A DNA stretch of 64,000 nt, from the NCBI RefSeq assembly GCF_022846255.1, contig NZ_AP025682.1. One strand, 5' to 3'. Under the pieces are notes generated by a model. That model searched no databases. It was given only the letters and a program-made list of their open reading frames with translations, and had not been told where the DNA came from. Shown here one piece after another: positions 5,529-62,490 of this stretch; position 1 is the stretch's first letter, and the number at the start of each line of letters is the position of its first letter. Both the position numbers and the translations under genes were made by a program. This stretch comes from Escherichia coli (lineage in GTDB: Bacteria; Pseudomonadota; Gammaproteobacteria; Enterobacterales; Enterobacteriaceae).

Positions 5529-5604
<76 letters not shown>

Positions 5605-5639
5605 TTGGGTGGTCTGTGCTTTACAGCACTTTCAAATTT

Positions 5640-5715
<76 letters not shown>

Positions 5716-5872
5716 TTAATCTTCGTCTTTCGAACCGCTACTGCCTTGGCTGCCTTCACTCACCTTAGTCACTTACTTTTGTAAGCTCCCAAGGATTCGT
5801 TCAGTTGCCGCCTTGTCGCAATTCGAAATACTGCGATTGGGTGGTCTGTGCTTTGCAGCACTTTTCAAATTT

Positions 5873-5948
<76 letters not shown>

Positions 5949-6798: not shown

Positions 6799-7851
6799 TT
6801 GAGTAAAAATAAACTCTCCAAAGGCCAGCAGCGCCGCGTGAACGCCAATCACCAGCGTCGTCTTAAAACGTCTAAGGAGAAGCCCGACTACGACGACAAT
6901 CTGTTTGGCGAGCCTGATGAAGGTATCGTCATCAGCCGCTTTGGTATGCACGCTGATGTGGAATCCGCCGATGGCGACGTTCACCGCTGCAATATTCGCC
7001 GTACCATCCGTTCGCTGGTGACCGGCGACCGCGTAGTCTGGCGTCCGGGTAAACCGGCGGCGGAAGGCGTAAATGTCAAAGGGATCGTGGAAGCGGTGCA
7101 TGAGCGCACCTCGGTGTTGACGCGCCCGGACTTCTACGACGGCGTGAAACCTATTGCCGCCAACATCGACCAGATTGTTATTGTCTCCGCCATTTTGCCG
7201 GAGCTGTCGCTCAATATTATCGACCGTTACCTGGTGGCCTGCGAAACCTTGCTGATTGAGCCGATTATTGTGCTCAACAAGATAGACCTGCTGGACGACG
7301 AAGGCATAGAGTTCGTCAACGAACAGATGGATATCTACCGCAACATTGGTTATCGCGTATTGATGGTTTCCAGCCATACTCAGGATGGGCTGAAACCGCT
7401 GGAAGAGGCGTTGACCGGACGTATCAGCATTTTTGCCGGCCAGTCTGGCGTTGGCAAATCCAGCCTGCTTAACGCGTTGCTGGGGCTGCAAAAAGAGATC
7501 CTGACCAACGATGTCTCTGACAACTCGGGTCTCGGTCAGCACACCACGACCGCCGCTCGGCTGTATCACTTCCCGCACGGTGGTGATGTGATTGACTCCC
7601 CAGGAGTGCGTGAGTTCGGCCTCTGGCACCTGGAGCCGGAACAAATCACTCAGGGCTTTGTCGAATTCCATGACTACTTAGGTCTGTGTAAATATCGCGA
7701 TTGCAAACACGATACCGATCCGGGCTGCGCTATCCGGGAAGCGGTTGAGGAAGGAAAAATCGCGGAAACCCGTTTCGAAAACTATCACCGTATTCTGGAA
7801 AGCATGGCGCAGGTAAAAACGCGTAAAAACTTTTCTGATACGGATGACTGA
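6799..7851 (+). CDS. rsgA: ribosome small-subunit biogenesis GTPase RsgA (YjeQ)
   Basis: ORF track 6766..7851; G-motifs [15 protein letters not shown]-terminal Zn-finger cysteines ([14 protein letters not shown]); probable TTG start giving a 350-aa product. Confidence 0.82.
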
Positions 7852-32655: not shown

Positions 32656-32994
32656 ATGCTTGATGAAAAAAGTTCGAATACCGCGTCTGTCGTGGTGCTA
32701 TGTACGGCACCGGATGAAGCGACAGCCCAGGATTTAGCCGCCAAAGTGCTGGCGGAAAAACTGGCGGCCTGCGCGACCTTGATCCCCGGCGCTACCTCTC
32801 TCTATTACTGGGAAGGTAAGCTGGAGCAAGAATACGAAGTGCAGATGATTTTAAAAACTACCGTATCTCTCCAGCAGGCACTGCTGGAATGCCTGAAGTC
32901 TCATCATCCATATCAAACCCCGGAACTTCTGGTTTTACCTGTTACACACGGAGACACAGATTACCTCTCATGGCTCAACGCATCTTTACGCTGA
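32656..32994 (+). CDS. cutA: divalent-cation tolerance protein CutA
   Basis: ORF track 32650..32994; product [55 protein letters not shown]... Confidence 0.85.
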
Positions 32995-34667
32995 TCCTGC
33001 TACTTTGCAGCACTTCCGTTTTTGCCGGATTATTCGACGCGCCGGGACGTTCACAATTTGTCCCCGCGGATCAAGCCTTTGCTTTTGATTTTCAGCAAAA
33101 CCAACATGACCTGAATCTGACCTGGCAGATCAAAGACGGTTACTACCTCTACCGTAAACAGGTCCGCATTACGCCGGAACACGCGAAAATTGCCGACGTG
33201 CAGCTGCCGCAAGGCGTCTGGCATGAAGATGAGTTTTACGGCAAAAGCGAGATTTACCGCGATCGGCTGACACTTCCCGTCACCATCAACCAGGCGAGTG
33301 CGGGAGCGACGTTAACTGTCACCTACCAGGGCTGTGCTGATGCCGGTTTCTGTTATCCGCCAGAAACCAAAACCGTTCCGTTAAGCGAAGTGGTCGTCAA
33401 CAACTCAGCGCCACAGCCTGTGTCTGTTCCGCAGCAAGAGCAGCCCACCGCGCAATTGCCCTTTTCCGCGCTCTGGGCGTTGTTGATCGGTATTGGTATC
33501 GCCTTTACGCCATGCGTGCTGCCAATGTACCCACTGATTTCTGGTATCGTGCTGGGCGGTAAACAGCGGCTCTCCACTGCCAGAGCATTGTTGCTGACCT
33601 TTATTTATGTGCAGGGGATGGCGCTGACTTACACGGCACTGGGTCTGGTGGTTGCCGCCGCAGGGTTACAGTTCCAGGCGGCGCTACAGCACCCATACGT
33701 GCTCATTGGCCTCGCTATCGTCTTTACCTTGCTGGCGATGTCAATGTTTGGCTTGTTTACTCTGCAACTCCCCTCTTCGCTGCAAACACGTCTCACGCTG
33801 ATGAGCAATCGCCAACAGGGCGGCTCACCTGGCGGTGTGTTTGTTATGGGGGCGATTGCCGGACTGATCTGTTCACCATGCACCACCGCACCGCTTAGCG
33901 CGATTCTGCTGTATATCGCCCAAAGCGGGAACATGTTGCTGGGGGGCGGCACGCTTTATCTCTATGCGTTGGGCATGGGCCTGCCGCTGATGCTAATAAC
34001 CGTCTTTGGTAACCGCCTGCTGCCGAAAAGCGGCCCGTGGATGGAACAAGTCAAAACCGCGTTTGGTTTTGTGATCTTCGCACTGCCGGTCTTCCTGCTG
34101 GAGCGAGTGATTGGTGATATATGGGGATTACGCTTGTGGTCGGCGCTTGGTGTCGCATTCTTTGGCTGGGCCTTTATCACCAGCCTACAGGCCAAACGCG
34201 GCTGGATGCGCGTGGTGCAAATAATCCTGCTGGCAGCGGCATTGGTTAGCGTGCGCCCACTTCAGGATTGGGCATTTGGTGCGACGCATACCGCGCAAAC
34301 TCAGACGCATCTCAACTTTACACAAATCAAAACGGTAGATGAGTTAAATCAGGCGCTCGTTGAAGCCAAAGGCAAACCAGTGATGTTAGATCTCTATGCC
34401 GACTGGTGCGTCGCCTGTAAAGAGTTTGAGAAATACACCTTCAGCGACCCGCAGGTGCAAAAAGCGTTAGCAGACACGGTCTTACTTCAGGCTAACGTCA
34501 CTGCCAACGACGCCCAAGATGTGGCGCTGTTAAAGCATCTTAATGTCCTTGGCCTACCGACAATTCTCTTTTTTGACGGACAAGGCCAGGAGCATCCACA
34601 AGCACGCGTCACGGGCTTTATGGATGCTGAAACCTTCAGCGCACATTTGCGCGATCGCCAACCGTGA
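32970..34667 (+). CDS. dsbD: thiol:disulfide interchange protein DsbD (DipZ)
   Basis: ORF track 32889..34667; product from [19 protein letters not shown]...; C-terminal thioredoxin CVAC motif ([10 protein letters not shown]); overlaps cutA 3' end. Confidence 0.88.
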
Positions 34668-34703: not shown

Positions 34704-35279
34704 GTGCAACGTGAAGATGTACTGGGAGAAGCCCTGAAATTATTAGAATTACAAGGGATTGCCAACACCACGCTGGAGATGGTTGCTGAACGTGTGGATT
34801 ATCCACTGGACGAGCTACGCCGCTTCTGGCCAGACAAAGAGGCAATCCTCTACGATGCGCTGCGTTATCTTAGCCAACAGATAGATGTCTGGCGTCGTCA
34901 GCTGATGCTGGACGAAACGCAAACCGCCGAACAAAAGTTGCTGGCACGTTATCAGGCGTTATCGGAGTGCGTTAAAAACAACCGCTATCCGGGCTGTCTG
35001 TTTATCGCTGCCTGTACGTTTTATCCCGATCCTGGCCACCCTATTCATCAACTGGCCGATCAGCAAAAAAGCGCGGCCTACGATTTCACCCACGAACTGT
35101 TAACCACGCTGGAAGTTGACGATCCGGCGATGGTAGCAAAGCAGATGGAACTGGTGCTGGAAGGCTGTTTAAGCCGAATGCTGGTGAATCGTAGCCACGC
35201 GGATGTCGACACCGCACATCGGCTGGCAGAAGATATCCTGCGCTTCGCTCGCTGCCGCCAGGGTGGCGCACTGACCTGA
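34704..35279 (+). CDS. yjdC: TetR-family transcriptional regulator YjdC
   Basis: ORF track 34680..35279; N-terminal HTH ([25 protein letters not shown]); probable GTG start. Confidence 0.75.
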
Positions 35280-35385: not shown

Positions 35386-35461
35386 GCCCGGATAGCTCAG
35401 TCGGTAGAGCAGGGGATTGAAAATCCCCGTGTCCTTGGTTCGATTCCGAGTCCGGGCACCA
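35386..35461 (+). tRNA. pheU: tRNA-Phe (anticodon GAA)
   Basis: GCCCGGATAGCTCAGTCGGTAGAGCAGGGGATTGAAAATCCCCGTGTCCTTGGTTCGATTCCGAGTCCGGGCACCA (76 nt); symbol by position downstream of yjdC. Confidence 0.92.
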
Positions 35462-35474
35462 AATTCATATCAAC

Positions 35475-35497
35475 GGACCTCCACGGAGGTCCGTTTT
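35475..35497 (+). terminator. hairpin terminator after tRNA-Phe
   Basis: GGACCTCC-AC-GGAGGTCC followed by GTTTTTCG. Confidence 0.55.
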
Positions 35498-35658
35498 TCG
35501 TTTCAGAACGCCACAATTTAAGCGTTCTACCTACAAATCAATTCTACCGAACTCAACCAGATTCCCCCCACATCAACCCCATTGTGTGGGTATAATTGCG
35601 GGTATACCCCAGTTCGACAGAATTTGTACCCTCTTTAACGCATTCAGAAGGCTGTACT

Positions 35659-36924
35659 ATGGCACTGACTGACGCAAAAATCCGGGCTGCAAAGCCCTCT
35701 GACAAGGCTTATAAACTCACTGACGGGGCCGGCATGTTCCTGCTGGTTCATCCTAATGGTTCCCGTTACTGGCGTCTCCGTTATCGTATTCTGGGTAAGG
35801 AGAAGACTCTGGCACTTGGTGTGTATCCAGAAGTTTCTCTCTCCGAAGCTCGTACAAAACGGGATGAGGCCCGAAAACTGATTTCAGAGGGGATTGACCC
35901 TTGCGAACAGAAAAGAGTTAAAAAAGTAGTCCCTGATTTACAGCTCTCTTTTGAACATATTGCACGACGCTGGCATGCCAGTAATAAACAATGGGCACAA
36001 TCACACAGCGATAAAGTACTCAAAAGCCTCGAGACACACGTTTTCCCCTTTATCGGCAACCGGGATATCACAACACTCAATACCCCGGACCTGCTTATTC
36101 CTGTTCGTGCTGCAGAAGCAAAACAAATTTATGAAATCGCCAGTCGTCTGCAGCAAAGAATATCTGCTGTAATGCGTTACGCCGTACAGTCTGGCATCAT
36201 CAGATATAACCCGGCTCTGGATATGGCTGGTGCATTGACCACGGTAAAAGGCCAGCATCGCCCCGCTCTGAATCTTTCACGCCTGCCTGAACTTCTGTCG
36301 CGTATTGACGGTTATAAAGGCCAGCCTGTCACCCGGCTTGCCGTTATGCTGAATTTACTGGTTTTTATTCGTTCCAGTGAACTCAGATATGCCCGCTGGT
36401 CTGAAATTGATATTGACAATGCCATGTGGACTATTCCAGCCGAACGCGAACCTCTGCCTGGCGTAAAATTCTCACACCGGGGCTCCAAGATGCGAACACC
36501 ACATCTTGTGCCACTCAGCAAACAGGCTGTAGCCATACTGACAGAACTTCAGACATGGGCTGGTGAAAATGGTCTGATCTTTACGGGAGCACATGACCCG
36601 CGTAAACCAATCAGTGAAAATACTGTAAATAAAGCCCTGAGGGTGATGGGATATGACACAACCCGGGAAGTCTGTGGCCATGGATTCCGGGCGATGGCAT
36701 GCAGTGCATTGATTGAATCAGGTTTGTGGTCCCGCGATGCAGTGGAACGTCAGATGAGTCATCAGGAGCGTAATGGTGTACGTGCTGCGTATATCCATAA
36801 AGCAGAACATCTGGAAGAACGTCGACTGATGCTACAGTGGTGGGCAGATTTTCTGGATGCAAACAGAGAAAGATTTATCAGTCCATTTGAATATGCAAAG
36901 ATTAATAACCCATTAAAACAGTAA
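35659..36924 (+). CDS. int: P4-type (tyrosine recombinase) integrase of the tRNA-Phe island
   Basis: ORF track 35596..36924; N-terminus MALTDAKIRAAKPSDKAYKLTDGAGMFLLVHPNGSRYWRLRYRILGKEKTLALGVYPEVSLSEAR typical of P4-like integrases; C-terminal catalytic region with HGFRAMACS...ERQMSHQ; starts ~200 bp after the tRNA 3' end. Confidence 0.85.
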   Translation: MALTDAKIRAAKPSDKAYKLTDGAGMFLLVHPNGSRYWRLRYRILGKEKTLALGVYPEVSLSEARTKRDEARKLISEGIDPCEQKRVKKVVPDLQLSFEHIARRWHASNKQWAQSHSDKVLKSLETHVFPFIGNRDITTLNTPDLLIPVRAAEAKQIYEIASRLQQRISAVMRYAVQSGIIRYNPALDMAGALTTVKGQHRPALNLSRLPELLSRIDGYKGQPVTRLAVMLNLLVFIRSSELRYARWSEIDIDNAMWTIPAEREPLPGVKFSHRGSKMRTPHLVPLSKQAVAILTELQTWAGENGLIFTGAHDPRKPISENTVNKALRVMGYDTTREVCGHGFRAMACSALIESGLWSRDAVERQMSHQERNGVRAAYIHKAEHLEERRLMLQWWADFLDANRERFISPFEYAKINNPLKQ

Positions 36925-37218
36925 TCATCCCGGGCAAATGCCCGGGAATCTACTCCAGGATTATTTTCTTTGTTAAAAAAACAGACAAAACGGTATTAAC
37001 TTCGTAAGCGTACAGCGAGGGCCTTATTAGCGAGGAAGATTTCTCTTGTAGGTAGTAATGTAACCCAAAGATAACGGCTTCTTTAAACTTTTGGGCAGCA
37101 ACATTTATAATCTCATGGCTACTTTTCACTGCCAGGCTGATTTAAACACAACCATTTTATGTTGGTAAATCAACAAAGGGGACATATAGCCCCCTTCTTT
37201 CATCAGGTTAATTTTCCA

Positions 37219-37731
37219 TCAGTCGGTCCAAGTAGTTAATTCAAAGGTTGTCCGGTAGACTCCTGGAACCAATGTCTGGTCTCCGAGGATTTTTGCAGTT
37301 ATTCGACTTGTTGTCCCAACAACAAATGGAGCGAATCCGGCTCCACTACCTACCTTCACCCCATTAGCAAGGTTATCCCCTGCGTAGTTGTGAATCGGTG
37401 CGCCGTATGAACTAAGGTACGCTTTTGCAGTATGACCATCTGGCCCGGTAAAACTGAATGGCGCCTTCAACGGTCCTGGCGAAGTCTCTCCTTGAGGATT
37501 GCGGAGTTTTCCGAATGTTGGTGTTCCCCTGGTTTGAGTCATATCAAGGTGCCCCCAAACCTCACCATCTTTTGCATTTGTAGTCGTTGGCCCAGCGTCG
37601 ACCCAATCTATTGTGAATTCAGCATCTGATTCAACTGTATGAGTGGCTGTTACTGTCACAGCATGGCAAGTTAGCGCCATTGTTATACCTGCAATGACAC
37701 TGCTTGCGATAGCTATTTTCTTTAAATTCAT
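37219..37731 (-). CDS. secreted fimbrial/afimbrial adhesin subunit (AfaE-like, last gene of the chaperone-usher operon)
   Basis: 170-aa ORF with signal peptide MNLKKIAIASSVIAGITMALTCHA; position after afaD-like gene matches the afaE slot; sequence itself not recognised as a known AfaE variant. Confidence 0.5.
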   Translation of the reverse strand: MNLKKIAIASSVIAGITMALTCHAVTVTATHTVESDAEFTIDWVDAGPTTTNAKDGEVWGHLDMTQTRGTPTFGKLRNPQGETSPGPLKAPFSFTGPDGHTAKAYLSSYGAPIHNYAGDNLANGVKVGSGAGFAPFVVGTTSRITAKILGDQTLVPGVYRTTFELTTWTD

Positions 37732-38025
37732 ACCTTATCCTTATACTTGGTTATAATAAATGGCAAAACATATTTCTATAATACTGCTTCACCACAATAA
37801 ACACTGGCCCGCTATTTAAATACCCTGCAGGAAAACACGAATACATTAAGTCCCCCAACAGGACACATATAAATATTTAAATGCTTCCACCAGTGATATT
37901 TTAATGTACAGTCAACTACAACAGTAGCTGCCCGTTCATTAAACTTAACGTTCAATATATTTTCACAGATACTTAGCTACATATGTTCCATAACAGACGT
38001 CCACTTTTTGATGAAAAGGTGGACA

Positions 38026-38071
38026 CTGCATCACCAATACAAGTTTAACTGCATCACCAATACAAGTTTAA
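38026..38071. repeat. perfect tandem duplication of a 23-bp unit (CTGCATCACCAATACAAGTTTAA x2)
   Basis: Seen directly in the AT-rich spacer between the afaD-like and afaE-like genes. Confidence 0.8.
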
Positions 38072-38288
38072 TGGCTACATACGGCACTCAGTTTACACTT
38101 ACATTACATATGCATTTTAACACATCAACTATAACACCTTTATTTAAGTCTGTTGTGGACCATAGAATATGGTAAATTACAACAAGCAAAATAAAGTTAT
38201 ACATGCTTTTATAAAATAACATGCTATTTTAGAGGGCAGCCATTGACAACTGAATAGTTACTTTATTAGCATAAAGAAATTATGAATA

Positions 38289-38708
38289 TTATGAGCATTC
38301 TCCGCTAACTGATAATATATATTCATCAGGCCCAAGCAGCTGATTTCCGTCAATCACAACATCAAATGTATGCTGCTCAGGTATCCCGGTACTGACCATA
38401 CCTTGCCCATCACTTACCGATGGCAACCATCCTGCGCCATCCAACCTAACCCGCATTTCATTATGACTGTCATGTCTACCCAGTATAATATAGTGACCAG
38501 GAATATTTCCCATTTGTCTGCTATTCATCCAGATATGAAAACTTGTATAGGTGCCTCGGCAGATAATCCTTCCTGTTGCCACCTTCGTACCGTCTTTTAA
38601 CTCGCCACTCCTTCCATCACTGGTATTAAGACTCAGTTCAACTGCCTGCGCCAGACTGGATATAACCACCAGTACAATACCACTACATACTATCTGTATT
38701 TTCTTCAT
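38289..38708 (-). CDS. afaD: AfaD/DraD-family invasin-like subunit
   Basis: 139-aa ORF; strings DGTKVATGRIICRGTYTSFHIWMNSRQ, EMRVRLDGAGW and FDVVIDGNQLLGPDEYILSVSGEC match my recollection of AfaD (GAKVATGRIICRE..GFHVWMNERQ.., FDV..DGNQ..PGEY..SV.G.C). Confidence 0.65.
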   Translation of the reverse strand: MKKIQIVCSGIVLVVISSLAQAVELSLNTSDGRSGELKDGTKVATGRIICRGTYTSFHIWMNSRQMGNIPGHYIILGRHDSHNEMRVRLDGAGWLPSVSDGQGMVSTGIPEQHTFDVVIDGNQLLGPDEYILSVSGECS

Positions 38709-38723
38709 CAGGGTACTCCTTGG

Positions 38724-41312
38724 TCACATACACACAGTGCGCACCAGAAAAATACCAGTTGCTTCTTTCTCCTCTGGAAGTCGATAATTTGCACGGCAAG
38801 AACTGTTACGCCCCCATTGAACCTTCAACTGTCCGGTTTCATCCAGTCCGCTCAAATACACCTCTCCATTATCCCCCACAACCCCTGCCCCACCAGGCAT
38901 TTGACCTTTCTTTCCTTCCTCTGTCACCACAGCTCCAAAAGGCAGGCGAGAGCCGTCACTACGTGACAGAGTTATCAGTGCTCTTCCCCCTACTCGAGTG
39001 ATAAACTTCGCCCGAACCACGGCTCCCTTTGTAGGAACAACACGAGTATCTGTCTGTGATACTTCCACATTTTCCGGGAAAGTTGTCGGATCCAGTGTAA
39101 TAAGATTTTCTTGGTATGGAGATACATGATTCACAAGAGTGTAACCTCTGGTATCGGTCCTAACGCCAGGCAAACTCCCAACTGAAGCGCCATTAACTCC
39201 AGGTGCTACAACCAGAGCAACCGTATCCTCTCCTTTCTGACCAAGAGTGATACCTTCATTGTGGAGCACCATACCTCCTGATATACCAGCACTCATCTGG
39301 CGAATATGACTGCTGTAACTGTACATCCCCGCCAACTCACCATAGGTACCAAACCACCTCAAATTCAGTCGGCTACTGTCTACATTATTTTCACTTCCGG
39401 GAGCTATCCGCTCACTCACATCCCAATACAACCTACGGTCAAATGCGCGACCATTCAAACCGGTTTCGTACCAAGTATTCTGCCCCGTAGTTCTTTGCGT
39501 TTGAGTTGTAACATTAATATCGTTATCTCTACCCCCAATCCACTGCCCCAGAGGAATATTCATCCACAGATTGATACTATCCTCTATATGCCCTCTCTGA
39601 TAATATGCATTTGTACTATAGTTACGTGACCAATTAACGTACCACGAAATATTCTTCCATGACGTTCCATATGACATGCCGAAAGAATCCTGCTTCTGTC
39701 GGTTATGACGGAACTCATCACGGCTACCGTAAAGGCTCATATACCCCAGAGATCCCAGAGACTGATTAAGGCGTAATGTTGTCCGGCGACTCCTGTCCCC
39801 ACTATAACTATATGCACGAAAGTTATCATTTCTAAATGTACTCAGCACATCGGACAATGTGTGGAAGCCTGAGGACGTATACTGATATCTCGCCGCTGTC
39901 AAATCTGTATTCGTAAGTTCAAATGACTTGTTGTAACGCAGACGCCATGTCTCTCCCGTCTCCGTATCCCGTCCCTTCTGCTGACCGCGGGAATGAATGC
40001 CGTCAACCGACACCGCCCCCAGTCTGCCCATTGACCATCCCAGCCCCAGAGCCGCTGACTGATAATGCGATGACATCTGTGCTCCCCCGAAGGCCGTCAG
40101 CCCCCATGGCAGACCATACATGACACTCATCTGCCCCAGCGGTGAATGCTCAACAGCATCATCTGAAGAACGGTACTCCCCCCCGGCAATGCTGTACTTC
40201 ATATATCCCTCACGAAGCGCAATGGCCGGTGTGGTGTAAGGCACCGTAAACACCTGAGCAGTACCATCAGATTCCTGTACCGTTACCTGAAGGTCTCCAC
40301 CTGACCCCGTCAGCGGCAGGTCCGTCAGGGCAAATGCGCCCGGGGCCACCGTCCGGCTGTCAATCAGATAACCATTCTGGCGCACCTCAATCCTGGCCTG
40401 GGTCCGGGCAATACCTCTGACCACCGGCGCAAATTCACGCTGGTTATAAGGCACCATGCTCTCATCTGACCCCAGCATCACCCCACGGAACGGCACACTG
40501 TCAAAAATGTCTGAAGGCGTGTAATCCTCACCCAGCGTCAGACGACTTCTGAGACTGTTAATCCCCCGCTCCGCACGAATATAGGCACTCTCCCACTGCC
40601 CCGGCTGACCGGATGACCTGTTCCAGGTTGTCAGGTTACGCACCCGCCAGGGACCAAGATTAATGCCCGGCTCAAGAGTGACCCAGTAATTGTCAGTAAC
40701 CGATTTCCCGTATCCACGATATTCTGAACGACTGGTATTTGCCTGCCAGTTCAGCAGAAAAGCAGGAATACCATCATCCCATAAGGCCTCCGGCGCTATC
40801 CCCCTCAGTGGCGGGCGCAGGGCCACCTGAGGAATACTCAGCAGCAACTGCTGTGACGCAAACTGGTATGTTTCCGTGGCCTGTGGAATAACGGATAACT
40901 CAGCACAGGCGTCAGCTTCCTTTCCGTCATCCCCGTGAAACAACTCCGGATATTCCTCCGTCATGACACCATAGCGGGCCAGCATTTCCCGGGTCAGACA
41001 GGTTTTCAGATAAGTCTTACCCTCCGCATCTTTCTCCGTACGGAACGCCATGTCCCGCGAATCCACCCGCGAACCGTTCAGGATAATATCAACCGGATAG
41101 ATACCGGGCAGTTGGGCACCTTCTTCAAACAACGTCAGGTCCACCCCCTTTCCGCCACCTTTAAGCATGGAAGCATCAAAGGAGTATGTGCGGGCCTCAG
41201 TATTCCCGGTGTAAAGAAGGGTACAGGCCGCCATCACAGAGAGAGCAACCGCTGTAATTTTTGTTTTTACGCAATATAAAGATAAACCTGAAGATGACTT
41301 ATTCCTGTGCAT
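38724..41312 (-). CDS. afaC: fimbrial outer-membrane usher protein
   Basis: 862-aa ORF with signal peptide and usher N-terminal signature (FDASMLKGGGKGVDLTLFEEGAQLPGIYPVDIILNG); symbol by synteny with afaD-like gene. Confidence 0.8.
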   Translation of the reverse strand: MHRNKSSSGLSLYCVKTKITAVALSVMAACTLLYTGNTEARTYSFDASMLKGGGKGVDLTLFEEGAQLPGIYPVDIILNGSRVDSRDMAFRTEKDAEGKTYLKTCLTREMLARYGVMTEEYPELFHGDDGKEADACAELSVIPQATETYQFASQQLLLSIPQVALRPPLRGIAPEALWDDGIPAFLLNWQANTSRSEYRGYGKSVTDNYWVTLEPGINLGPWRVRNLTTWNRSSGQPGQWESAYIRAERGINSLRSRLTLGEDYTPSDIFDSVPFRGVMLGSDESMVPYNQREFAPVVRGIARTQARIEVRQNGYLIDSRTVAPGAFALTDLPLTGSGGDLQVTVQESDGTAQVFTVPYTTPAIALREGYMKYSIAGGEYRSSDDAVEHSPLGQMSVMYGLPWGLTAFGGAQMSSHYQSAALGLGWSMGRLGAVSVDGIHSRGQQKGRDTETGETWRLRYNKSFELTNTDLTAARYQYTSSGFHTLSDVLSTFRNDNFRAYSYSGDRSRRTTLRLNQSLGSLGYMSLYGSRDEFRHNRQKQDSFGMSYGTSWKNISWYVNWSRNYSTNAYYQRGHIEDSINLWMNIPLGQWIGGRDNDINVTTQTQRTTGQNTWYETGLNGRAFDRRLYWDVSERIAPGSENNVDSSRLNLRWFGTYGELAGMYSYSSHIRQMSAGISGGMVLHNEGITLGQKGEDTVALVVAPGVNGASVGSLPGVRTDTRGYTLVNHVSPYQENLITLDPTTFPENVEVSQTDTRVVPTKGAVVRAKFITRVGGRALITLSRSDGSRLPFGAVVTEEGKKGQMPGGAGVVGDNGEVYLSGLDETGQLKVQWGRNSSCRANYRLPEEKEATGIFLVRTVCM

Positions 41313-41479
41313 TATTCACACCTGAGCCACGGTTTCTTTTTATTTACATATGCCGGAGGATATACACACGTATTTGTGCGTTTGCACGCCTATTCACACA
41401 CACTTATTTCACACACGCTCAGTATTCAACCGGGTTAATCAAATAAGCCCGCCGCTGACGTTAATATTTATTCCGGCTT

Positions 41480-42247
41480 TCAGCTTTTTAATTCCGATTC
41501 AAACGGCTTACTCTTTCCGCCGTAATCCGTAATCACTGTCCAGCTGACTTTTCCTGATGCACCAGAAGGAATTTCATATTCGTAAGAGGAGTACGGAGAA
41601 ATATAACGATGCTCCTTAACCTCTTTCCCACCAACGCTCAGCTCTGAAATATTAATATAAAATGGTGTCGGGTTATTCCCTTTCAGTTTATTACCTGATT
41701 TTGTCCACTCCACTTTTCCGCCTGCATCCTCCGGACGCCCTTTAACCGCAGGCGGACGAACAAACAGCTTCACACAACTGCTGACGGAAAGATTTACCTG
41801 CAGGGTTGCCTTGTCAGCTTTCTTTTTATCAGCACCTTTCTCTTCTGCCCATCGGTCATCATGCTTTGGCGGAATGCCTTTCACACAAAGCCACTGCAGA
41901 CTCTCACGGTCCTCAGGAAAAACACCCCCGGTACGGACAATTCGCAAACGGCTCGACTGAAGTGCATCCAGACGGAAAAGCGGCGGCGTCACCACAAAGG
42001 GGGCCGGGTCCTTCTGATTCTCTGCCAGCACCTCTGACTGAACCAGCATCGGATAATCCAGGTCATTCATTACCGTCAGTGAGGCCCCCGATGAATCCAG
42101 GTTGTAAAACACCCTTGTGGCCCCCAGATGCAGGGAAAAAACCTTTGACGTAGTCTTCGTGCTTTCCTGGTTTCCGGCTGCCATTACGCCGGAAGCCGGC
42201 AACCCCGCCAGTATGCCAACGAGCGCTGCAAGATGTCTGATTTTCAT
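41480..42247 (-). CDS. afaB: periplasmic pilus chaperone (PapD-like)
   Basis: 255-aa ORF with signal peptide and conserved chaperone core (PFVVTPPLFRLDALQSSRLRIV); symbol by synteny. Confidence 0.8.
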   Translation of the reverse strand: MKIRHLAALVGILAGLPASGVMAAGNQESTKTTSKVFSLHLGATRVFYNLDSSGASLTVMNDLDYPMLVQSEVLAENQKDPAPFVVTPPLFRLDALQSSRLRIVRTGGVFPEDRESLQWLCVKGIPPKHDDRWAEEKGADKKKADKATLQVNLSVSSCVKLFVRPPAVKGRPEDAGGKVEWTKSGNKLKGNNPTPFYINISELSVGGKEVKEHRYISPYSSYEYEIPSGASGKVSWTVITDYGGKSKPFESELKS

Positions 42248-53068: not shown

Positions 53069-53887
53069 TTAAGCAGCCATCTGATGATATTTTTCCCTGA
53101 AGGCTGCCGGGGAGATATTCCCCAGACGAGAGTGACGACGCTGACGATTGTAGAAAATCTCAATGTATTCCCGTATTACTGAGATGGCTTCATCCCGGTT
53201 ATTAAAACGATAGTGGCTCAGGCTCTCATTTTTCAGCGTTCCCCAGAAGCTTTCCATCGGAGCGTTGTCGTAACAGTTACCTTTACGCGACATTGATGTT
53301 TTCAGACCAAACTGCTCCTGTATGACCCGGTAATCGTATGCGCAGTACTGTGAACCTCGATCAGAGTGGTGGATTAGCCCGGCAGGTGGGCGCTGGCTCC
53401 TGAGCGCCATAAACAGGGCTTTACCTGTCAGCTCTTTTGTCATGCGCTCTCCCATGGCGTAGCCGACAATTTCGCACGTATAAACATCTTTGATGCCAGC
53501 GAGGTACAACCATCCCTCCTGTGTGGCAACATACGTCAGGTCCGCCACCCAGACCTAATTTGGTGCTGTAGGAGCGAACGTCTGGTTCAGCAGATTTGGC
53601 GCAACTGGCAGATTGTGGTTCGAGTTCGTAGTCGCTCTGAACTTGCGTTTCTGCTTACAGCGTAGCCTTAGCTCCTTACGAAGACGTGCCAGTCGGTCTC
53701 GACCAACGATGATGCCATTCTCTGCCAGCTCTGTCTGGAGCCGCCGGGTTCCATATGTTTCGCGAGTGCGGATATGTGCCACCTTAATCTCCAGTTTTAG
53801 CCGCTCATCACTTTGTTTTCTGTCTGAGGGTTCATGCTGTACCCAGTTGTAATAACCGCTCCTGGATACACCAAATACCTGACACAT
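53069..53887 (-). pseudogene. IS3-family (IS600-like) transposase OrfB with premature TAG
   Basis: Track ORFs 53555..53887 and 53069..53548 are one DDE transposase (..APTAPN * VWVADLTYVATQEGWLYLAG..HHSDRGSQY..) split by an amber codon where Gln (CAG) is expected. Confidence 0.7.
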
Positions 53888-53964
53888 CGCTTCAATGGGA
53901 AATTGTTGTCGCCATTGTTCGATTAACGCGTATTTTTCAGCGACTCCTGTGCAAAATACGCTGT

Positions 53965-55185
53965 TGTAGATTCAATCTGTCAATGCAACACCCCTTTCAA
54001 TTATCTCTTTCGGTGTTTTGAACTTCAGTGTCTTTCTCGGTCTGTTGTTTAGCTGAGCAGCAACCAGATCTAGTTCATGTTGAGTATATTGGGCAAGACA
54101 TGTCTTTTTAGGAAAGTACTGCCGAATTAGCCCATTTGTGTTCTCATTTGTTCCCCGCTGCCAAGGACTCTGAGGATCGCAGAAGTAAACTTTAACGCCG
54201 GTGCTGACAGTAAATTCTAGATGTCTGGCCAGTTCCATTCCTCTGTCCCATGTCAGTGATTTTCTGAGTTCTGACGGTAAACTCAGGAATTTGTCGGTAA
54301 GAGCCTGATTTACTGAGACAGAATCTTTGCCCCTGAGTCTAAGGATGATCGTATAACGTGATTTTCGGTCTACAAGTGTGGCTATATGAGAGTTTTTTGT
54401 ACCTGAGACTAAATCGCCCTCCCAATGCCCCAGAGAGCGTCTGTTATCGATATTTCGGGAACGTTCGTGAATTGGTGTTCCGTTCACTATGTTAATCGTA
54501 CCTCTTTCGCCTTTGCGGGTATGACGCCTGCCATGGCGAAGGCTATGCGACCGTCGCAGATGCTGTATATTCAGGTGGTGTAGCGCTTCACGGCTACGAA
54601 AGTACAGCGTTTTATAAATTGTCTCAGGTGATATTCGCAGCGTTTTTTGACGTGGTTTTGTTCGCCTTAACCATCCTGATATTTGCTCTGGAGACCATTT
54701 CATCTCCAGCTTTTCCAGAACAAGCTTTCGCAATGGTAAATTTTGATCCAGTAAGCACGGTTTTGGCCTTTTCGCCATTCTGTTGGCTCGGTTATTAGCA
54801 TCAACAGCTTTGTAATAGCGTCTGCCCCGATTACGCTGAACTTCACGTGAGATCGTCGAAGGACTGCGATTCAGCGCAGTAGCTATCGCACGAATGCTCA
54901 TTTTGGCTGACAAACCAGCTCGTATCTCCTCGCGCTCAGACAGTGTCAGGTGAGCTACAGCCCGCTTACGCTCATGGGGTTTTATGCCGCCAGTATCCCT
55001 TAACATAGTGAAGATCGTTCCGGGTTTTGAACCCAGGATATTCGCTATTTCACTGAAGCCTGTTCCGTTCTTCCATAGTTCAAAAACAGAGGCTTTTTCC
55101 TCTGCTGTAAATGTTCGTCTCATTCAAAAAACCTCCGCAACCCCATGTTTTCACATAACTGTTGCGTTGATCAATTGAATCTACA
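53965..55185 (-). mobile_element. IS30 (1221 bp) inserted into the IS600-like orfA
   Basis: Ends TGTAGATTCAATCTGTCAATGCAACA ... GTTGCGTTGATCAATTGAATCTACA; flanked by a 2-bp direct repeat GT; contains one 383-aa transposase. Confidence 0.85.
53972..55123 (-). CDS. IS30 transposase
   Basis: 383-aa ORF MRRTFTAEEKASVFELWKNGTGFSEIANILGSKPGTIFTMLRDTGG... with HTH and DDE regions; apparently intact. Confidence 0.85.
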   Translation of the reverse strand: MRRTFTAEEKASVFELWKNGTGFSEIANILGSKPGTIFTMLRDTGGIKPHERKRAVAHLTLSEREEIRAGLSAKMSIRAIATALNRSPSTISREVQRNRGRRYYKAVDANNRANRMAKRPKPCLLDQNLPLRKLVLEKLEMKWSPEQISGWLRRTKPRQKTLRISPETIYKTLYFRSREALHHLNIQHLRRSHSLRHGRRHTRKGERGTINIVNGTPIHERSRNIDNRRSLGHWEGDLVSGTKNSHIATLVDRKSRYTIILRLRGKDSVSVNQALTDKFLSLPSELRKSLTWDRGMELARHLEFTVSTGVKVYFCDPQSPWQRGTNENTNGLIRQYFPKKTCLAQYTQHELDLVAAQLNNRPRKTLKFKTPKEIIERGVALTD

Positions 55186-55448
55186 GTTGCTTTTTTTAAT
55201 ATATCTCGCTCAAGGCGAGCTTCATTTAACGCCTTACGCAGTTGCAGAATTTCAGATTCCAGTTCAGCCAGCGTGCGGGAACCAGGAGTACCGAGCCCTT
55301 TTCTGGCGGCGGTAACCCATTGTCCTAAAGTGCCTTCAGGAAGAGATAATCGGGAAGCGCCTTCACTGCTCGAAAGTTGATTTTCAAGAACCATTCTGAC
55401 AGCTTCGGCTTTGAACTCTTTAGAGTAACGTTGGGTTTTTCTGCTCAT
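55186..55448 (-). pseudogene. IS3-family (IS600-like) transposase OrfA, C-terminus displaced by the IS30 insertion
   Basis: MSRKTQRYSKEFKAEAVRMVLENQ...LERDILKKAT then the IS30 end; the remaining codons (AYFAQESLKNTR*) resume on the far side of IS30 at ~53925-53962. Confidence 0.7.
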
Positions 55449-55985
55449 TATTAGCTCCTTCTGATGCCATTCTATTTCAGGAAGGAGTGTCCGTTAAACT
55501 CAGGCTACCTCACAACAGGGGACAGACAACGCACGGGATAAAAGGGACGTTTTCGTCAGAATGTTGTTCTGCCGGCGCTGCATGTTCTCCCCGTATTCTG
55601 GCCAGTGTGATGCCAGTGTAAATTCATGTCAAAAAGTGTCAGCGAGAAAATTTACACCTGAAAAAGTCGGTCGTAAAACTGTTTCATGGCGAAACATCAG
55701 GAAGTATGTCAGAAATGTGATCGCTATTGTGGTTTTACGGAAGAGCATAAGGCAAAAAACGGCGGGAAATTCATTGACATTCACGGAGGATAAACAGCAC
55801 CATTTTATTATCCAGCAAGAAAACCGTAATCCCCCTCTGAATCCGGACAAGGTTCGTACTGGCAACATAACCTGAAATGGCACTAATGGCCAGAGCTTAC
55901 TAATACATAATCCCTACAGGATGTAGCCACCAGTTTTGTTCATCCGGTATTCTGATTTGGTAACATGCTCCAGAAAGGAAGAAAT

Positions 55986-57218
55986 ATGTACTGCAATGAA
56001 TTAAAAGAATTTGCGCAAGAGCAGGAACAAAAACTTATCAGTGCGCTTGCTGATACCAGAGAGCACCCGTCCCCCGATGGTGAAACAAGAAGCCGGGATA
56101 ATTATCAACGGGATTACGCGCGTATTCTGTATTCATCATCATTTCGCAGGTTGCAGGGAAAGATGCAACTTTTTGAAATTGATCCTGAAAAATTCAACAG
56201 AAACAGATTAACGCACAGTCTTGAGGTTGCTCAGATCGCCCGAAGTATCGCGTCAGACCTCAAACTGGTTAACCCGGTGGTGGTTGAACTGGCAGCTCTG
56301 GCGCATGACATCGGAAATCCTCCTTTCGGTCATTCCGGTGAAAAACTGCTTAATGAACTGTCTGAAGAAATCGGCGGCTATGAAGGTAATGCACAGGCGC
56401 TACGTATCCTGAGAAAACTGGAGAAGAAATTTTCATACTGCAACGGATTAAATCTGACTCACCGTAGTTTACTTTCGGTTGTTAAGTATCCCGCCCCTCG
56501 CACTGCAACTACTGCCGGCAAGTTCATTTATGATGATGACTTTGATTTTTATACTAACCTGCTTGCTGAAAATCAGCTCGATCTGAATCCCGGAGAGAAA
56601 ACGATTGATGCACAGATAATGGATCTCGCGGATGAGATTGCCTACGCTGCGCATGACCTGGAAGATGCCCTTAGCAGGAACATGGTCACGATTGAAGATA
56701 TTGAATATGAGTTTCAGATTTCTGACGAATTCCGGGGAGCGAGGGAACAGTTCAGGGAAATCGTTACTCAGTCGAGAAACACCGCTTTTCAGGCTAACTT
56801 ACTGAAAACCTCAGAAGAATTTGCCATCATATTCCGCAAGGAGTTAACTTCAAATATTGTCAATCGCCTCGTTGCTGATATTTCTGTAGTAACGAACCTG
56901 AATGGTTTTCAGGAACTGGGATTCGGGAAACTGAATGCGTTATCCGAAGGGCTCAAAAAACTTCTCTTTAAAGTCATCATGCGAAAACGTAATATCCTCA
57001 CCTATGAGTTCAGGGGAAATAAAATAATCAGGGATTTATATGACTTTTACAATGAAGGAGAGAATTATAAATTTCTGCCTCCTGAACTTAAATTCACCTT
57101 ACCCCAACCAGATTCCTGTATATTTGAAATCAGCAAAAAACGAGCAGTGGTTGACTATATTTCAGGTATGATGGATACATTTGCAGTCAAGGAATGGGAA
57201 ACTCACTGTCTGAAGTAA
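55986..57218 (+). CDS. Dgt-family HD-domain dNTP triphosphohydrolase-like protein (dGTPase-like)
   Basis: ORF track 55965..57218; HD motifs RLTHSLEVAQIARSIA and LAHDIGNPPFGHSGE plus EGNAQALRIL; RBS AAAGGAAG before ATG at 55986; AT-rich island gene. Confidence 0.8.
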   Translation: MYCNELKEFAQEQEQKLISALADTREHPSPDGETRSRDNYQRDYARILYSSSFRRLQGKMQLFEIDPEKFNRNRLTHSLEVAQIARSIASDLKLVNPVVVELAALAHDIGNPPFGHSGEKLLNELSEEIGGYEGNAQALRILRKLEKKFSYCNGLNLTHRSLLSVVKYPAPRTATTAGKFIYDDDFDFYTNLLAENQLDLNPGEKTIDAQIMDLADEIAYAAHDLEDALSRNMVTIEDIEYEFQISDEFRGAREQFREIVTQSRNTAFQANLLKTSEEFAIIFRKELTSNIVNRLVADISVVTNLNGFQELGFGKLNALSEGLKKLLFKVIMRKRNILTYEFRGNKIIRDLYDFYNEGENYKFLPPELKFTLPQPDSCIFEISKKRAVVDYISGMMDTFAVKEWETHCLK

Positions 57219-57317
57219 CACTGTCGATTACCAGAGGCGCATATTTTCCCGTTATGGTTATTGCGCCTTTATTCCGTTTCGGTGACAGGTTATTTTAAAT
57301 ATTCTGGAAATGCGTTG

Positions 57318-57887
57318 ATGGGCAAGAACAATTACCCTGAAAATAAATACAGGAAATGGTTTTCCACAGCAATAACATATCTTATTACAGGTGGTTTGTG
57401 CTGGTATATGTTGTGGGCATCCGCTATATCTCATTATACTGTTTTACAAAATACGGTACCTGAATGGACAACATATTTTTGCACCGGTATAATCACCGGA
57501 TCTCTTTCTTTTATTTATGCATTTTATATCCGCACCTTTAACAGAACATTAAAGTATTTATTAAATGCATTCACGGGGGGATTTTGTCTTGGATTTATAC
57601 TGAGTCTGAACTGTTACGATGTCTGTGTTTATCTTTTTCCGGATAAGGTTATTAGCTATGAATCTGAATATGATGTTGTTTTTCCGGGACCATCAAGAGG
57701 AAAGTATGGACATTGTGAAGCGGGACTCTGGTTGAAAGATCAAAACACTTCCAGATGGATACAACTTTGTACAAATAAAGAGTTCCTGCGCAGTCACCAT
57801 AAACAGGGGATGACAGGTGTATGGGTAACAGCTCGTGTTAATAAAATTGGGTCGTATATCGTGAAATATGAATTTATCTATATGTAG
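57318..57887 (+). CDS. hypothetical membrane protein (3 predicted TM helices plus ~90-aa soluble C-terminal domain)
   Basis: ORF track 57261..57887; hydrophobic segments ITYLITGGLCWYMLWASAI, GIITGSLSFIYAFYI, FTGGFCLGFILSLNCY; starts ~100 bp after the dGTPase-like gene on the same strand. Confidence 0.55.
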   Translation: MGKNNYPENKYRKWFSTAITYLITGGLCWYMLWASAISHYTVLQNTVPEWTTYFCTGIITGSLSFIYAFYIRTFNRTLKYLLNAFTGGFCLGFILSLNCYDVCVYLFPDKVISYESEYDVVFPGPSRGKYGHCEAGLWLKDQNTSRWIQLCTNKEFLRSHHKQGMTGVWVTARVNKIGSYIVKYEFIYM

Positions 57888-58303: not shown

Positions 58304-58738
58304 TTATTCATAATCAGGACCAGATGATACTTCCTGAGATATAAGAAAATCATCAAGAGAACCTCCGGCTTTTATAGCCTCTGCTATGGCCTTAGGCCGA
58401 CGTCCTTGTCCATTCCAGTACATTCTTTTACCGTTATCGTCATACTCGTATTTATGCCCTCCTGACACACTTTTTCTGCCTGCCTGTGACTTTTTGCCAA
58501 ATTCACGATAAAAATCTTCCAGAGATATACCATGTTCATCCATGAGTGATTTGATAGCTTTCATATTTTCCTTTCGCTCATTACGTTGCTGAATAGCTAT
58601 GTCAAAGTTTTCCTTAACCTTATTTAAATCTTCATCAGACATTTCTATAACCAGTTTTTTAACAAAGTCAATACTCAGAAGTAATGCCCGGTAAGTAATG
58701 AACTCTTCATTTTCAAAAGGAATTTTCTTCTTACTCAT
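58304..58738 (-). CDS. H-NS-family nucleoid-associated protein paralogue
   Basis: 144-aa ORF; C-terminal DNA-binding region GRKSVSGGHKYEYDDNGKRMYWNGQGRRPKAIAEAIKAGGSLDDFLI matches the H-NS motif (..Y.Y.DENG...TW.GQGR.P......GKSLDDFLI). Confidence 0.75.
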   Translation of the reverse strand: MSKKKIPFENEEFITYRALLLSIDFVKKLVIEMSDEDLNKVKENFDIAIQQRNERKENMKAIKSLMDEHGISLEDFYREFGKKSQAGRKSVSGGHKYEYDDNGKRMYWNGQGRRPKAIAEAIKAGGSLDDFLISQEVSSGPDYE

Positions 58739-59631: not shown

Positions 59632-59973
59632 ATGACAAAACGCCAGCGTAAAAACCGTGAGCGTATTAATCGTCTTGTGGAACACTGGCCTGAGTTATTC
59701 AACCGGGAAAAACCCCAACCGCTTAAAGTTGAGATATCTGACGACCTGATACAGGATATCGCCATCAGAGAACTGGCGTTTAGCGCAGGTGCATTACGCG
59801 CGGCAGTAGCGTCTTATGTGCAGTCTCCGCGCTATTACCGTGCGTTAATGGCAGGTGGCGCCCGTTACGACCTGAAGGGGCAACCGTGCGGGGAGGTGAC
59901 ACCACATGAACAGAAAGAGGCAGAGACCCGTTTAATGATGCTGAATGACCGACGAAAAGCCAGAAAGCGTTGA
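59632..59973 (+). CDS. ProQ/FinO-domain RNA-binding protein (small, island-encoded)
   Basis: 113-aa ORF; LRAAVASYVQSPRYYRALMAGGARYDLKGQPCGEVTPHEQKEAETR resembles the ProQ N-terminal domain ([39 protein letters not shown]) as I recall it. Confidence 0.65.
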   Translation: MTKRQRKNRERINRLVEHWPELFNREKPQPLKVEISDDLIQDIAIRELAFSAGALRAAVASYVQSPRYYRALMAGGARYDLKGQPCGEVTPHEQKEAETRLMMLNDRRKARKR

Positions 59974-60802: not shown

Positions 60803-61132
60803 TCATGCAGCAGCTCCTCGTGACTCCTCGATTCGCTGCTGCATCCACTGCTCCACTTCGCTTTTGTACCAGCGGCTGCTGCGACCCAGTTTGATGGGTT
60901 TAGGAAAATGGCCTTCACTGATCAGCTTGTAAAACCATTTGTCAGTCATACCGGTGAAGCTGGTGATGTAGTTCATGTCGATCAGGGGATCGTCGGCACG
61001 CAGCAACACGCTGTCGTGGCTTATTGTTGTCAACATGGTCAGAATGTCCTCTGTGAGATTTATGAAGGTTGGGCAAATGCGGGTGAATCTGCTGAACGGA
61101 GTTTTCAGAGCTGGCCTGCTACGGGATACCAA
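60803..61132 (-). CDS. AlpA-family phage/island transcriptional regulator (HTH)
   Basis: Track ORF 109 aa; C-terminal part ITSFTGMTDKWFYKLISEGHFPKPIKLGRSSRWYKSEVEQWM matches the AlpA-type HTH; true start probably an internal Met. Confidence 0.65.
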   Translation of the reverse strand: MVSRSRPALKTPFSRFTRICPTFINLTEDILTMLTTISHDSVLLRADDPLIDMNYITSFTGMTDKWFYKLISEGHFPKPIKLGRSSRWYKSEVEQWMQQRIEESRGAAA

Positions 61133-61923: not shown

Positions 61924-62490
61924 TCAGAAGTGAGGCTTACGAGGACGCCCTGCAGCAGGACGTTCAGGAACTTCATTGCAGCCGTAGGCACACAGCCCGT
62001 CTTTTTGCTCTTCTTTCGCCAGATAATGCAGGGCACCGCGAATATTATCGATGCTTTCAGGATCGTTGTGGCGCACAGGAATGTTGATGTTGTATGTATA
62101 ATGCGGCTGATATGTACAGCGGTGTGCCGAACCGCTGTTATGCGTAATAGACCGCCAGCATTCCGTAATCCGCTCCGCAAAGGGATATATTTTTTTAACC
62201 CTCTGACGATCGATCCAGAAAACCGCATGCGCATGAAAACCATGATCAACCGTCCATTCAATCACCCAGAAGAAGCCAACGATATTTTCAAATTGTTCCA
62301 CCTGCTCCAGCAGCATACGCAACTGCAATTCAAGCCAGCGATGATCAGGTTGTAAGAAATCAGGCGTATCTTTCCTGTAGAAGAAATCCATGCGTAAGGC
62401 CCGCAGGCAGGAATAGCGTGCCATCATTTGATTGATGTGATTGTCAAGTAAAGCGGTAAAAAACCAGTTTGGTGTGTAAGATTTAGGCAT
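61924..62490 (-). CDS. hypothetical protein (island cargo)
   Basis: 188-aa ORF from the track; no family recognised. Confidence 0.4.
   Translation of the reverse strand: MPKSYTPNWFFTALLDNHINQMMARYSCLRALRMDFFYRKDTPDFLQPDHRWLELQLRMLLEQVEQFENIVGFFWVIEWTVDHGFHAHAVFWIDRQRVKKIYPFAERITECWRSITHNSGSAHRCTYQPHYTYNINIPVRHNDPESIDNIRGALHYLAKEEQKDGLCAYGCNEVPERPAAGRPRKPHF

Follow-up and report, generated by a model that had tools for sequence, protein, structure and literature searches.

Pathogenicity islands carrying the afa-8 operon were described at tRNA-Phe genes by Lalioui and Le Bouguenec in 2001 as PAI I(AL862) and PAI II(AL862) (cited in PMC6174562 and PMC7545054). As far as these later papers relate it, pheU was the site of the first afa-8 island to be discovered, and pheV is the commoner location (PMC6174562; see also PMC7545054). 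In the accounts given there a P4-type integrase gene stands right after the tRNA gene, and beyond it the afa-8 operon (afaE-8, afaD, afaC, afaB, afaA, and afaF), with the AfaR small RNA, is encoded on the opposite strand. Islands of other kinds occupy pheU and pheV in E. coli and Shigella, among them LEE variants, SHI-3, PAI II-CFT073, and the insertions of LEE-negative STEC. A study of insertions at pheU, pheV, and selC reported that the pheU and pheV islands have the same 22-bp repeat, shifted by one base (PMC6174562). Phage P4 provides a further system for comparison, in which the attachment core is the 3′ end of the tRNA-Leu gene leuX through CCA and the integrase gene adjoins the core.

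In this study, we analysed 64,000 nucleotides of Escherichia coli DNA (contig NZ_AP025682.1; this whole stretch is hereafter called the window), in which a tRNA-Phe gene is followed by an integrase gene and an afa-8 operon (Table 1). The junction at the 3′ end of this tRNA gene is very probably attL, that is, the integrase-proximal edge of a genomic (pathogenicity) island of the afa-8 family that was put into pheU by site-specific recombination. The arrangement agrees with that of the AL862 islands, to the extent that these are described in the sources named above, in the integrase right after the tRNA gene, in the opposite-strand afa-8 operon, in the insertion at pheU as the site of first discovery, and in the presence of AfaR, and it differs in that afaF is truncated by an insertion sequence (IS). 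Membership in the afa-8 island named after AL862 is thus suggested by the integrase and the afa-8 block. With the other pheU and pheV islands the locus shares the attachment sites and the mosaic structure and, judging from its relatives, would also share the 22-bp terminal repeat, shifted by one base when compared with the K-12 tRNA, and the right-end backbone of GTPase, antirestriction, RadC, CbtA/YeeU, and DUF4942 genes, whereas their cargo is LEE, aerobactin, or pap instead of afa-8.

Table 1 Features of the window on both sides of the tRNA-Phe junction.
Feature	Position	Strand	Basis
dsbD (core flank)	32970-34667	+	Annotated features under genome matches
dicD/yjdC (core flank)	about 34704-35279	+	Annotated features under genome matches
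pheU tRNA-Phe(GAA), intact	35386..35461	+	ARAGORN; Rfam tRNA, 68 bits
att core segment, last 23 nt of the tRNA, TTCGATTCCGAGTCCGGGCACCA	35439..35461	+	Counterpart at the right end of islands in two relatives
Putative strand-exchange interval (core/island junction), CACCAAATTCATAT	35457..35470	.	Comparison of attL with attR
pheU intrinsic terminator (10-bp stem with 6 G-C pairs, 4-nt loop, T run)	35472..35500	+	Hairpin 35472-35495; 11-nt perfect arms
Tandem 12-mers TGTGGGTATAAT / TGCGGGTATACC, candidate arm-type Int sites	35585..35608	+	Direct-repeat search
Arm-like motif in inverted orientation, GAGGGTACAAAT, 25 nt before the start codon of int	35622..35633	-	Motif search
P4-type tyrosine integrase, 421 aa, apparently intact	35659..36924	+	Pfam; NCBIfam PRK09692; alignment with P4 Int
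afaE-8 / bmaE, afimbrial adhesin	37219..37731	-	97-98% DNA identity to loci annotated BmaE/AfaE-8
AfaR small RNA	37974..38230	+	Rfam RF02515, 270.5 bits (gathering score 100), full length
afaD, invasin	38289-38708	-	Annotation of relatives
afaC, usher	38724-41312	-	NCBIfam usher match
afaB, chaperone	41480-42247	-	NCBIfam chaperone match
afaA, PapB-type regulator	42325-42669	-	Pfam PapB
afaF, PapI-like regulator, truncated after 44 aa at the start of an IS3-family element	43213..43347	+	Translation
IS debris: IS3-family element, IS110 fragment, IS630-type transposase	43343..46400	.	Pfam rve, DEDD_Tnp_IS110, DDE_3
isrC match within the IS3-family element	44410-44532		Rfam
nanX/nanY-like genes (MFS transporter and oxidoreductase), GC 37%	47028..49435	+	NCBIfam PRK12307 above cut-off; nanX/nanY annotated in relatives
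Contact-dependent inhibition (CDI) remnant: cdiB split in two ORFs, small orphan ORFs	50666..52997	-	Pfam POTRA_2/POTRA_3 and ShlB on separate ORFs
IS3-family element broken by an IS30 transposase gene (53972-55123)	53069..55448	-	Pfam rve, HTH_38; ORF layout
Defence-type (anti-phage) dGTPase	55965-57218	+	PADLOC dGTPase E = 1.3e-110; NCBIfam dGTP_triPase above cut-off
dGTPase neighbour, conserved	57261-57887	+	Co-occurs with dGTPase in relatives; no family match in NCBIfam, Pfam, and PADLOC searches
H-NS paralogue	58304-58738	-	Pfam
ProQ/FinO	59632-59973	+	Pfam
AlpA-family regulator, excisionase candidate	60803-61039	-	Pfam
YagK/YfjJ-like	61924-62490	-	Pfam

The first-pass annotation, made from the letters of the window, had placed the core/island junction at the 3′ end of a tRNA-Phe gene, within 35386-35660. 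This was borne out by ARAGORN, which located the gene at 35386-35461, by Rfam, and by comparison with K-12 pheU, to which the gene is identical over all 76 nt. Upstream of it the genes stand in the K-12 order in reverse, with cutA, dcuA, aspA, groSL, and frdABCD following further upstream of dsbD, back to glyVXY. Since dsbD and dicD/yjdC form the upstream flank, the tRNA gene is pheU and not pheV. A 24-kb piece of this flank (window positions 6000-30000) was found in one piece, at a coverage of at least 80%, in 5403 of the 5426 complete E. coli genomes that made up our genome set, with a best identity to any of them of 98.7%. The source strain belongs to a poorly sampled lineage of the Escherichia/Shigella type: an identical DsbD was met in only three contigs from short reads, all of which break off at the tRNA gene, and an exact 60-nt pattern taken from the end of the window did not occur in the species-representative genomes.

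The integrase gene begins with an ATG at 35659, 198 nt past the tRNA gene, in close agreement with the earlier claim of a P4-type integrase about 200 bp downstream (at 35660). Its product aligned with phage P4 Int over 410 aa with 55% identity and 73% positives (E = 3e-175). Pfam matches were obtained for the N-terminus (Arm-DNA-bind_3, E = 1.1e-29), the central part (Phage_int_M, E = 1.2e-27), and the C-terminal catalytic domain (Phage_integrase, E = 1.7e-17), and in the alignment with P4 Int the catalytic residues R238, H341, R344, H368, and Y378 were all present. The spacing of 198 nt and the 22-nt repeat with which related islands end on their far side, described below, fit the view that this integrase would be the recombinase acting at the 3′ end of the tRNA gene. 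No promoter-like site was detected by a sigma-70 scan of the spacer between the tRNA and integrase genes, and hence we propose no promoter for int.

To locate the exchange point, attL (the window and strain 2009C-3133), attR (2009C-3133 and GmM077), and the K-12 site were compared. The attL copies have an intact GGG and the island-type spacer from the tenth base after the tRNA gene onward (C at 35471), whereas the attR copies of the relatives have GG and the K-12-type spacer from the equivalent position (A). This difference maps the probable crossover to the interval CACCAAATTCATAT. The intrinsic terminator of pheU would lie on the island side of such a crossover, and it is conserved in K-12 and in the attR copies.

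The spacer of 197 nt between the tRNA and integrase genes contains GGGTAYA four times against 0.05 expected (P about 2e-5). The longer motif TGYGGGTATA is weakly enriched across the whole window (12 against 5.9 expected), and the local cluster test is the relevant one. One of the two tandem 12-mer copies is missing from the K-12 site, and in attR of the relatives a tandem pair, GCGGGTACAAAT and GAGGGTACATTT, stands about 47 nt before the repeat. The annotated arm repeats of P4 have the same layout as the 12-mers of the window, comprising a tandem pair of 12-nt repeats, 12 nt apart, between core and int and an inverted copy that overlaps the start of int; a second tandem pair lies across the P4 core, as at the right ends of the relatives. 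The motif itself differs (GGGTAYA in the window and GGGGGCA in P4), as does the target tRNA gene. From this layout and the local clustering, the GGGTAYA 12-mers are probably arm-type sites of Int.

Within the window, only the left copy of the tRNA 3′ end is present. A second copy, a variant with one base deleted, or a second copy of the post-tRNA spacer was found there neither by a mismatch search nor by gapped BLAST, and cadCBA is likewise absent from the window. The statement that the far end of the island and its direct repeat lie outside the window therefore stands, and the search for the last ~20 nt of the tRNA gene that had been proposed as a check gave nothing in the downstream part of the window, the indel variant included. 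The comparison with K-12 and with pheV/pheU islands that had also been proposed showed cadC in K-12 and related islands in other strains. Among these is strain 2009C-3133, whose 58.4-kb island at pheU shares the int-afa-8 left end. In this strain and in GmM077 the island stops at TTCGATTCCGAGTCC-GGCACCA, adjoining yjdQ-cadC; the repeat at this right end is 22 nt long in both and corresponds to the 23-nt tRNA 3′ end minus one G. Past it the terminator and the spacer recur, and yjdQ and cadC follow. When the 23-nt tRNA end was searched for in the right ends of these relatives allowing mismatches only, there was no match, and alignment then revealed the one-base deletion. Because the repeat carries this deletion, it can escape a search for the last ~20 nt that allows mismatches but no gaps. 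After the module that runs from dGTPase to YfjJ, the relatives have 14-22 kb more, with genes for a GTPase, DUF932, an antirestriction protein, RadC/JAB, YeeU/CbtA, and DUF4942. By analogy, the right end of the island in the window should lie a further 13-22 kb beyond the window, where one should meet, in this order, arm-type repeats in tandem, the tRNA end copied over 22 nt without one G, the yjdQ scar, and cadC.

K-12 has pheU-yjdQ-cadC at this site, which confirms the claim that its tRNA gene is followed by the cad locus. The gene yjdQ, annotated as a pseudogene, stands as far from pheU (198 nt) as the integrase does in the window, and consists of integrase codons 1-11 fused to about codons 359-420 (the last ~62) of a diverged allele. 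Its C-terminal piece, which contains a stop and a frameshift, has about 58% amino acid identity. Hence the K-12 site is neither empty nor virgin: it is an old integrase scar, gutted by an internal deletion, in which about 200 bp of the spacer survive, with neither cargo nor a second repeat left. In genomes with an island at the site, yjdQ has been moved to the opposite end of that island. K-12-like genomes match the window for 114-133 nt beyond the tRNA gene with ~94% identity (in K-12 for 133 nt, to 35594), and this stretch is near-universal because it belongs to the old scar; the similarity is paralogous and not continuing core. The claim that the core ends exactly at the tRNA gene thus held to within 10 nt, as judged by the comparison of attL and attR for the exchange point, whereas similarity to K-12 runs for 133 nt past the gene.

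Beyond the tRNA gene, 28.5 kb of the island is visible in the window. Its GC content is 45.3% (1-kb windows, sd 0.062, range 0.33-0.55) compared with 51.8% for the upstream core (1-kb windows, sd 0.033), and individual modules span 32% to 51%. The AfaR small RNA lies in the spacer between afaD and afaE. Similarity to the afa-8 locus of the relatives stops at about 43342. At the place of the CDI remnant, which lacks cdiA in the window, the relatives have an intact cdiBA. The module of H-NS, ProQ, AlpA, and YfjJ genes occurs in the same order in pheU and pheV islands elsewhere, 14-22 kb before their right ends, and FEX669 has the same distal module as the window, located at pheV. Mobility genes are represented by elements of the IS3, IS30, IS110, IS630, and IS481 types, and the window closes with the start of an IS481-type transposase gene. 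The last gene of the window is widespread, being listed in 2266 blocks. The afa-8 operon, AfaR, the dGTPase, and the nanXY-like genes form a cargo of virulence or fitness type, the virulence role being taken from the literature. With this strain-variable content and the shifting GC content, the description of everything past the tRNA gene as accessory proved right. The afa-8 island of AL862 reportedly measures about 61 kb and carries sugar-utilisation genes, as its abstract of 2001 is said to state.

The distribution of the junction was examined with probes in the 5426 genomes. The K-12 arrangement dicD-pheU-yjdQ-cadC was complete in 3692 (68%), dicD-pheU with the start of the integrase in 1318 (24%), and the stretch from dsbD to afaD in three (2009C-3133, MRY15-131, and SCU-308); at least five other genomes have the tRNA-int-afa-8 block with a left flank of the pheV type. 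None of the genomes covered at least 80% of positions 35462-60000, for which the partial matches were scattered over different strains, pheV islands, and plasmids. Beyond about 43.3 kb the content of the island is unlike that of every complete genome searched, and the combination of afa-8, nanXY-like genes, dead CDI locus, and dGTPase module is found whole in none of them. The statement that core synteny stops at the tRNA gene is borne out by these results, with a sharp change in conservation there: the upstream flank is present in 5403 genomes and the downstream stretch in none at that coverage.

These counts bear directly on the case that the first-pass annotation had named against itself, in which other E. 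coli genomes carry the same genes at this position as conserved core. The genes after the tRNA would then be ordinary chromosome and K-12 would be atypical, which we regard as next to impossible. The same integrase type does occur at the site in 1318 genomes, and the first 114-133 nt after the tRNA gene are near-universal, but this stretch is accounted for by the old scar; cadC comes right after pheU-yjdQ in 68% of the genomes, the integrase with afa-8 is at pheU in only three, and GC content, IS load, and the integrase are typical of mobile DNA. The genes are thus not conserved core at this site, and the reading was rejected as refuted by the population counts. It is very improbable, although a little less so, that the element is a P4-like satellite prophage, that is, a phage-inducible element and not a pathogenicity island. 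The 55% identity of the integrases, the P4-like att layout, the AlpA/Vis-type small regulator, which P4 also encodes, and the YfjJ/Gp2-like genes would agree with a satellite. However, no primase/alpha, sid, psu, delta, or capsid-related genes are present in the 28.5 kb seen, so that the P4 functions for replication and helper exploitation are missing there; the element is several times larger than P4, and its cargo consists of an adhesin operon, metabolic genes, CDI, defence genes, and IS elements. The relatives, at 58 kb and with antirestriction, RadC, and CbtA-type genes in the backbone, are typical tRNA islands of E. coli.

Somewhat more weight, though still little, can be given to the presence of two islands in tandem, an afa-8 island followed by a separate island with the dGTPase, H-NS, AlpA, and YfjJ genes, in place of one reshaped island. 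Many islands at pheU and pheV have the distal module but no afa-8, 2009C-3133 contains an internal integrase fragment, and the old yjdQ scar indicates that serial occupation of pheU happens. However, neither the tRNA 3′ end nor the spacer recurs internally anywhere in the window, and a second integrase is likewise absent from it. The borders of the modules coincide with IS elements, which points to IS-mediated or homologous shuffling. We therefore consider this explanation unlikely.

Taken together, these findings favour a single island at attL of pheU. In the mechanism that we propose, the P4-type Int would have recombined the attP of the island with the 3′ end of pheU, the exchange occurring within or just past the last 5 nt of the tRNA gene (35457-35470). 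Because the exchange would take place at the extreme 3′ end, the tRNA gene stays intact. The island would have been inserted between pheU and the older scar, and the tRNA 3′ end and the terminator would now be supplied by the island, with the spacer, the arm sites, int, and all that follows to the right being island DNA. The cargo may later have been reshaped by IS elements and by homologous exchange with pheV islands. In its present form the island is an IS-riddled mosaic of afa-8 with AfaR, nanXY-like genes, a dead CDI locus, the dGTPase, and an H-NS/ProQ/AlpA/YfjJ backbone, and with such heavy IS damage it may no longer be mobile.

A more speculative reading, which we put forward only tentatively and consider rather doubtful, concerns the displaced scar. 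Each island that enters pheU would push the scar, consisting of the 22-23-nt core, ~190 nt of spacer, and yjdQ, to its far end, and the resulting imperfect direct repeat of ~215 nt with ~90% identity, far longer than the 22-nt one, might permit RecA-dependent loss or replacement of whole islands. If this were true, islands could be lost or replaced without the integrase, which could explain the free shuffling of cargo between pheU and pheV islands; with an intact Int, AlpA, and the GGGTAYA arm sites, even a decayed-looking island would remain exchangeable.

The kind of feature described here is already known: the junction is a textbook case for tRNA-Phe islands, in a family on record since 2001, of which this mosaic is a new instance, and what is known of tRNA-Phe islands is unchanged by it. 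Only three points are mildly new, namely how the arm sites are laid out, where the crossover maps, and how rarely afa-8 sits at pheU (3 of 5426 genomes), here in a lineage that has been poorly sampled. For annotation, the analysis provides an exact island boundary and the caution that the repeat at the far end differs by an indel. For the strain itself, the junction marks the start of a horizontally acquired virulence and defence island, with which the strain carries the afa-8 adhesin/invasin system, a system associated with extra-intestinal and calf infections.

A search against Rfam returned a full-length, 270-bit match to RF02515, the AfaR small RNA, inside the afaD-afaE spacer; the window therefore contains the RNA that regulates the afa-8 operon. 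The gene for the PapI-like regulator AfaF was cut to 44 aa exactly at the start of an IS3-family element, and this same element contained a match to isrC (RF01387). The truncation may have changed how afa-8 is controlled by phase variation.

Coordinates of the features in the window and in the compared loci
Feature	Sequence	Coordinates	Strand
glyVXY	window	5529-5948	-
Core genes compared	window	6000-30000	
dsbD	window	32970-34667	
AfaR	window	37974-38230	+
afaF, truncated	window	43213-43347	+
IS3-family element abutting afaF	window	43343-44564	
isrC match	window	44410-44532	
nanX/nanY-like (yjhB/yjhC) genes	window	47028-49435	+
Reduced contact-dependent inhibition locus (split cdiB, orphan ORFs)	window	50666-52997	-
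IS3-family element with nested IS30	window	53069-55448	-
IS30 transposase gene	window	53972-55123	
Interval containing dGTPase gene	window	55965-57887	+
AT-rich stretch	window	62500-63700	
Cargo of 2009C-3133 pheU island	L001	38255-45001	
Cargo of 2009C-3133 pheU island	L003	3330-7066	
yjdQ	L002 (K-12)	7192-7354	
yjdQ-type scar	L003 (2009C-3133)	36566-36944	
yjdQ-type scar	L004	about 41080-41451	

The island also carried a defence-type dGTPase (PADLOC, E = 1.3e-110), which was accompanied by a protein of 189-208 aa in every relative having the dGTPase. This partner matched no entry in any family library, and the two genes may form a two-gene unit. The related pheU island of strain 2009C-3133 encodes a SIR2-family protein, a type I restriction-modification system, and the thymidine hypermodification-type proteins thymidylate synthase and aGPT-Pplase3, whereas the window has none of this defence and modification cargo. 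Genes similar to nanX/nanY, for a sialic-acid-derivative transporter and an oxidoreductase, belong to the island's cargo; they had a GC content of 37% and were flanked by IS remnants.

In the relatives' islands an intact cdiB-cdiA pair of about 9.5 kb occupies the corresponding position, whereas cdiB in the window was broken into two ORFs (the ShlB and POTRA parts) with small orphan ORFs alongside; this region is a reduced contact-dependent inhibition locus. Nested insertions were also observed, with an IS30 transposase gene inside an IS3-family element. Further along lies a 1.2-kb stretch at 32% GC, in which no ORF of at least 60 aa and no Rfam match was detected. Strain FEX669 has this stretch, 96% conserved, in its pheV island, where it adjoins the YfjJ-like gene.

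Among 5426 complete E. coli genomes, none matched the core genes at more than 98.7% identity, and the exact DsbD protein was found in three short-read contigs only; the lineage carrying the window is poorly sampled. The three tandem tRNA-Gly(GCC) genes were ordinary and at their expected core position.

K-12 yjdQ is a gutted integrase, consisting of codons 1-11 and about 359-420 of a diverged allele. In genomes with an occupied pheU, a yjdQ-type scar lay displaced at the island's cadC end, and this displacement is evidence for serial use of the pheU site.
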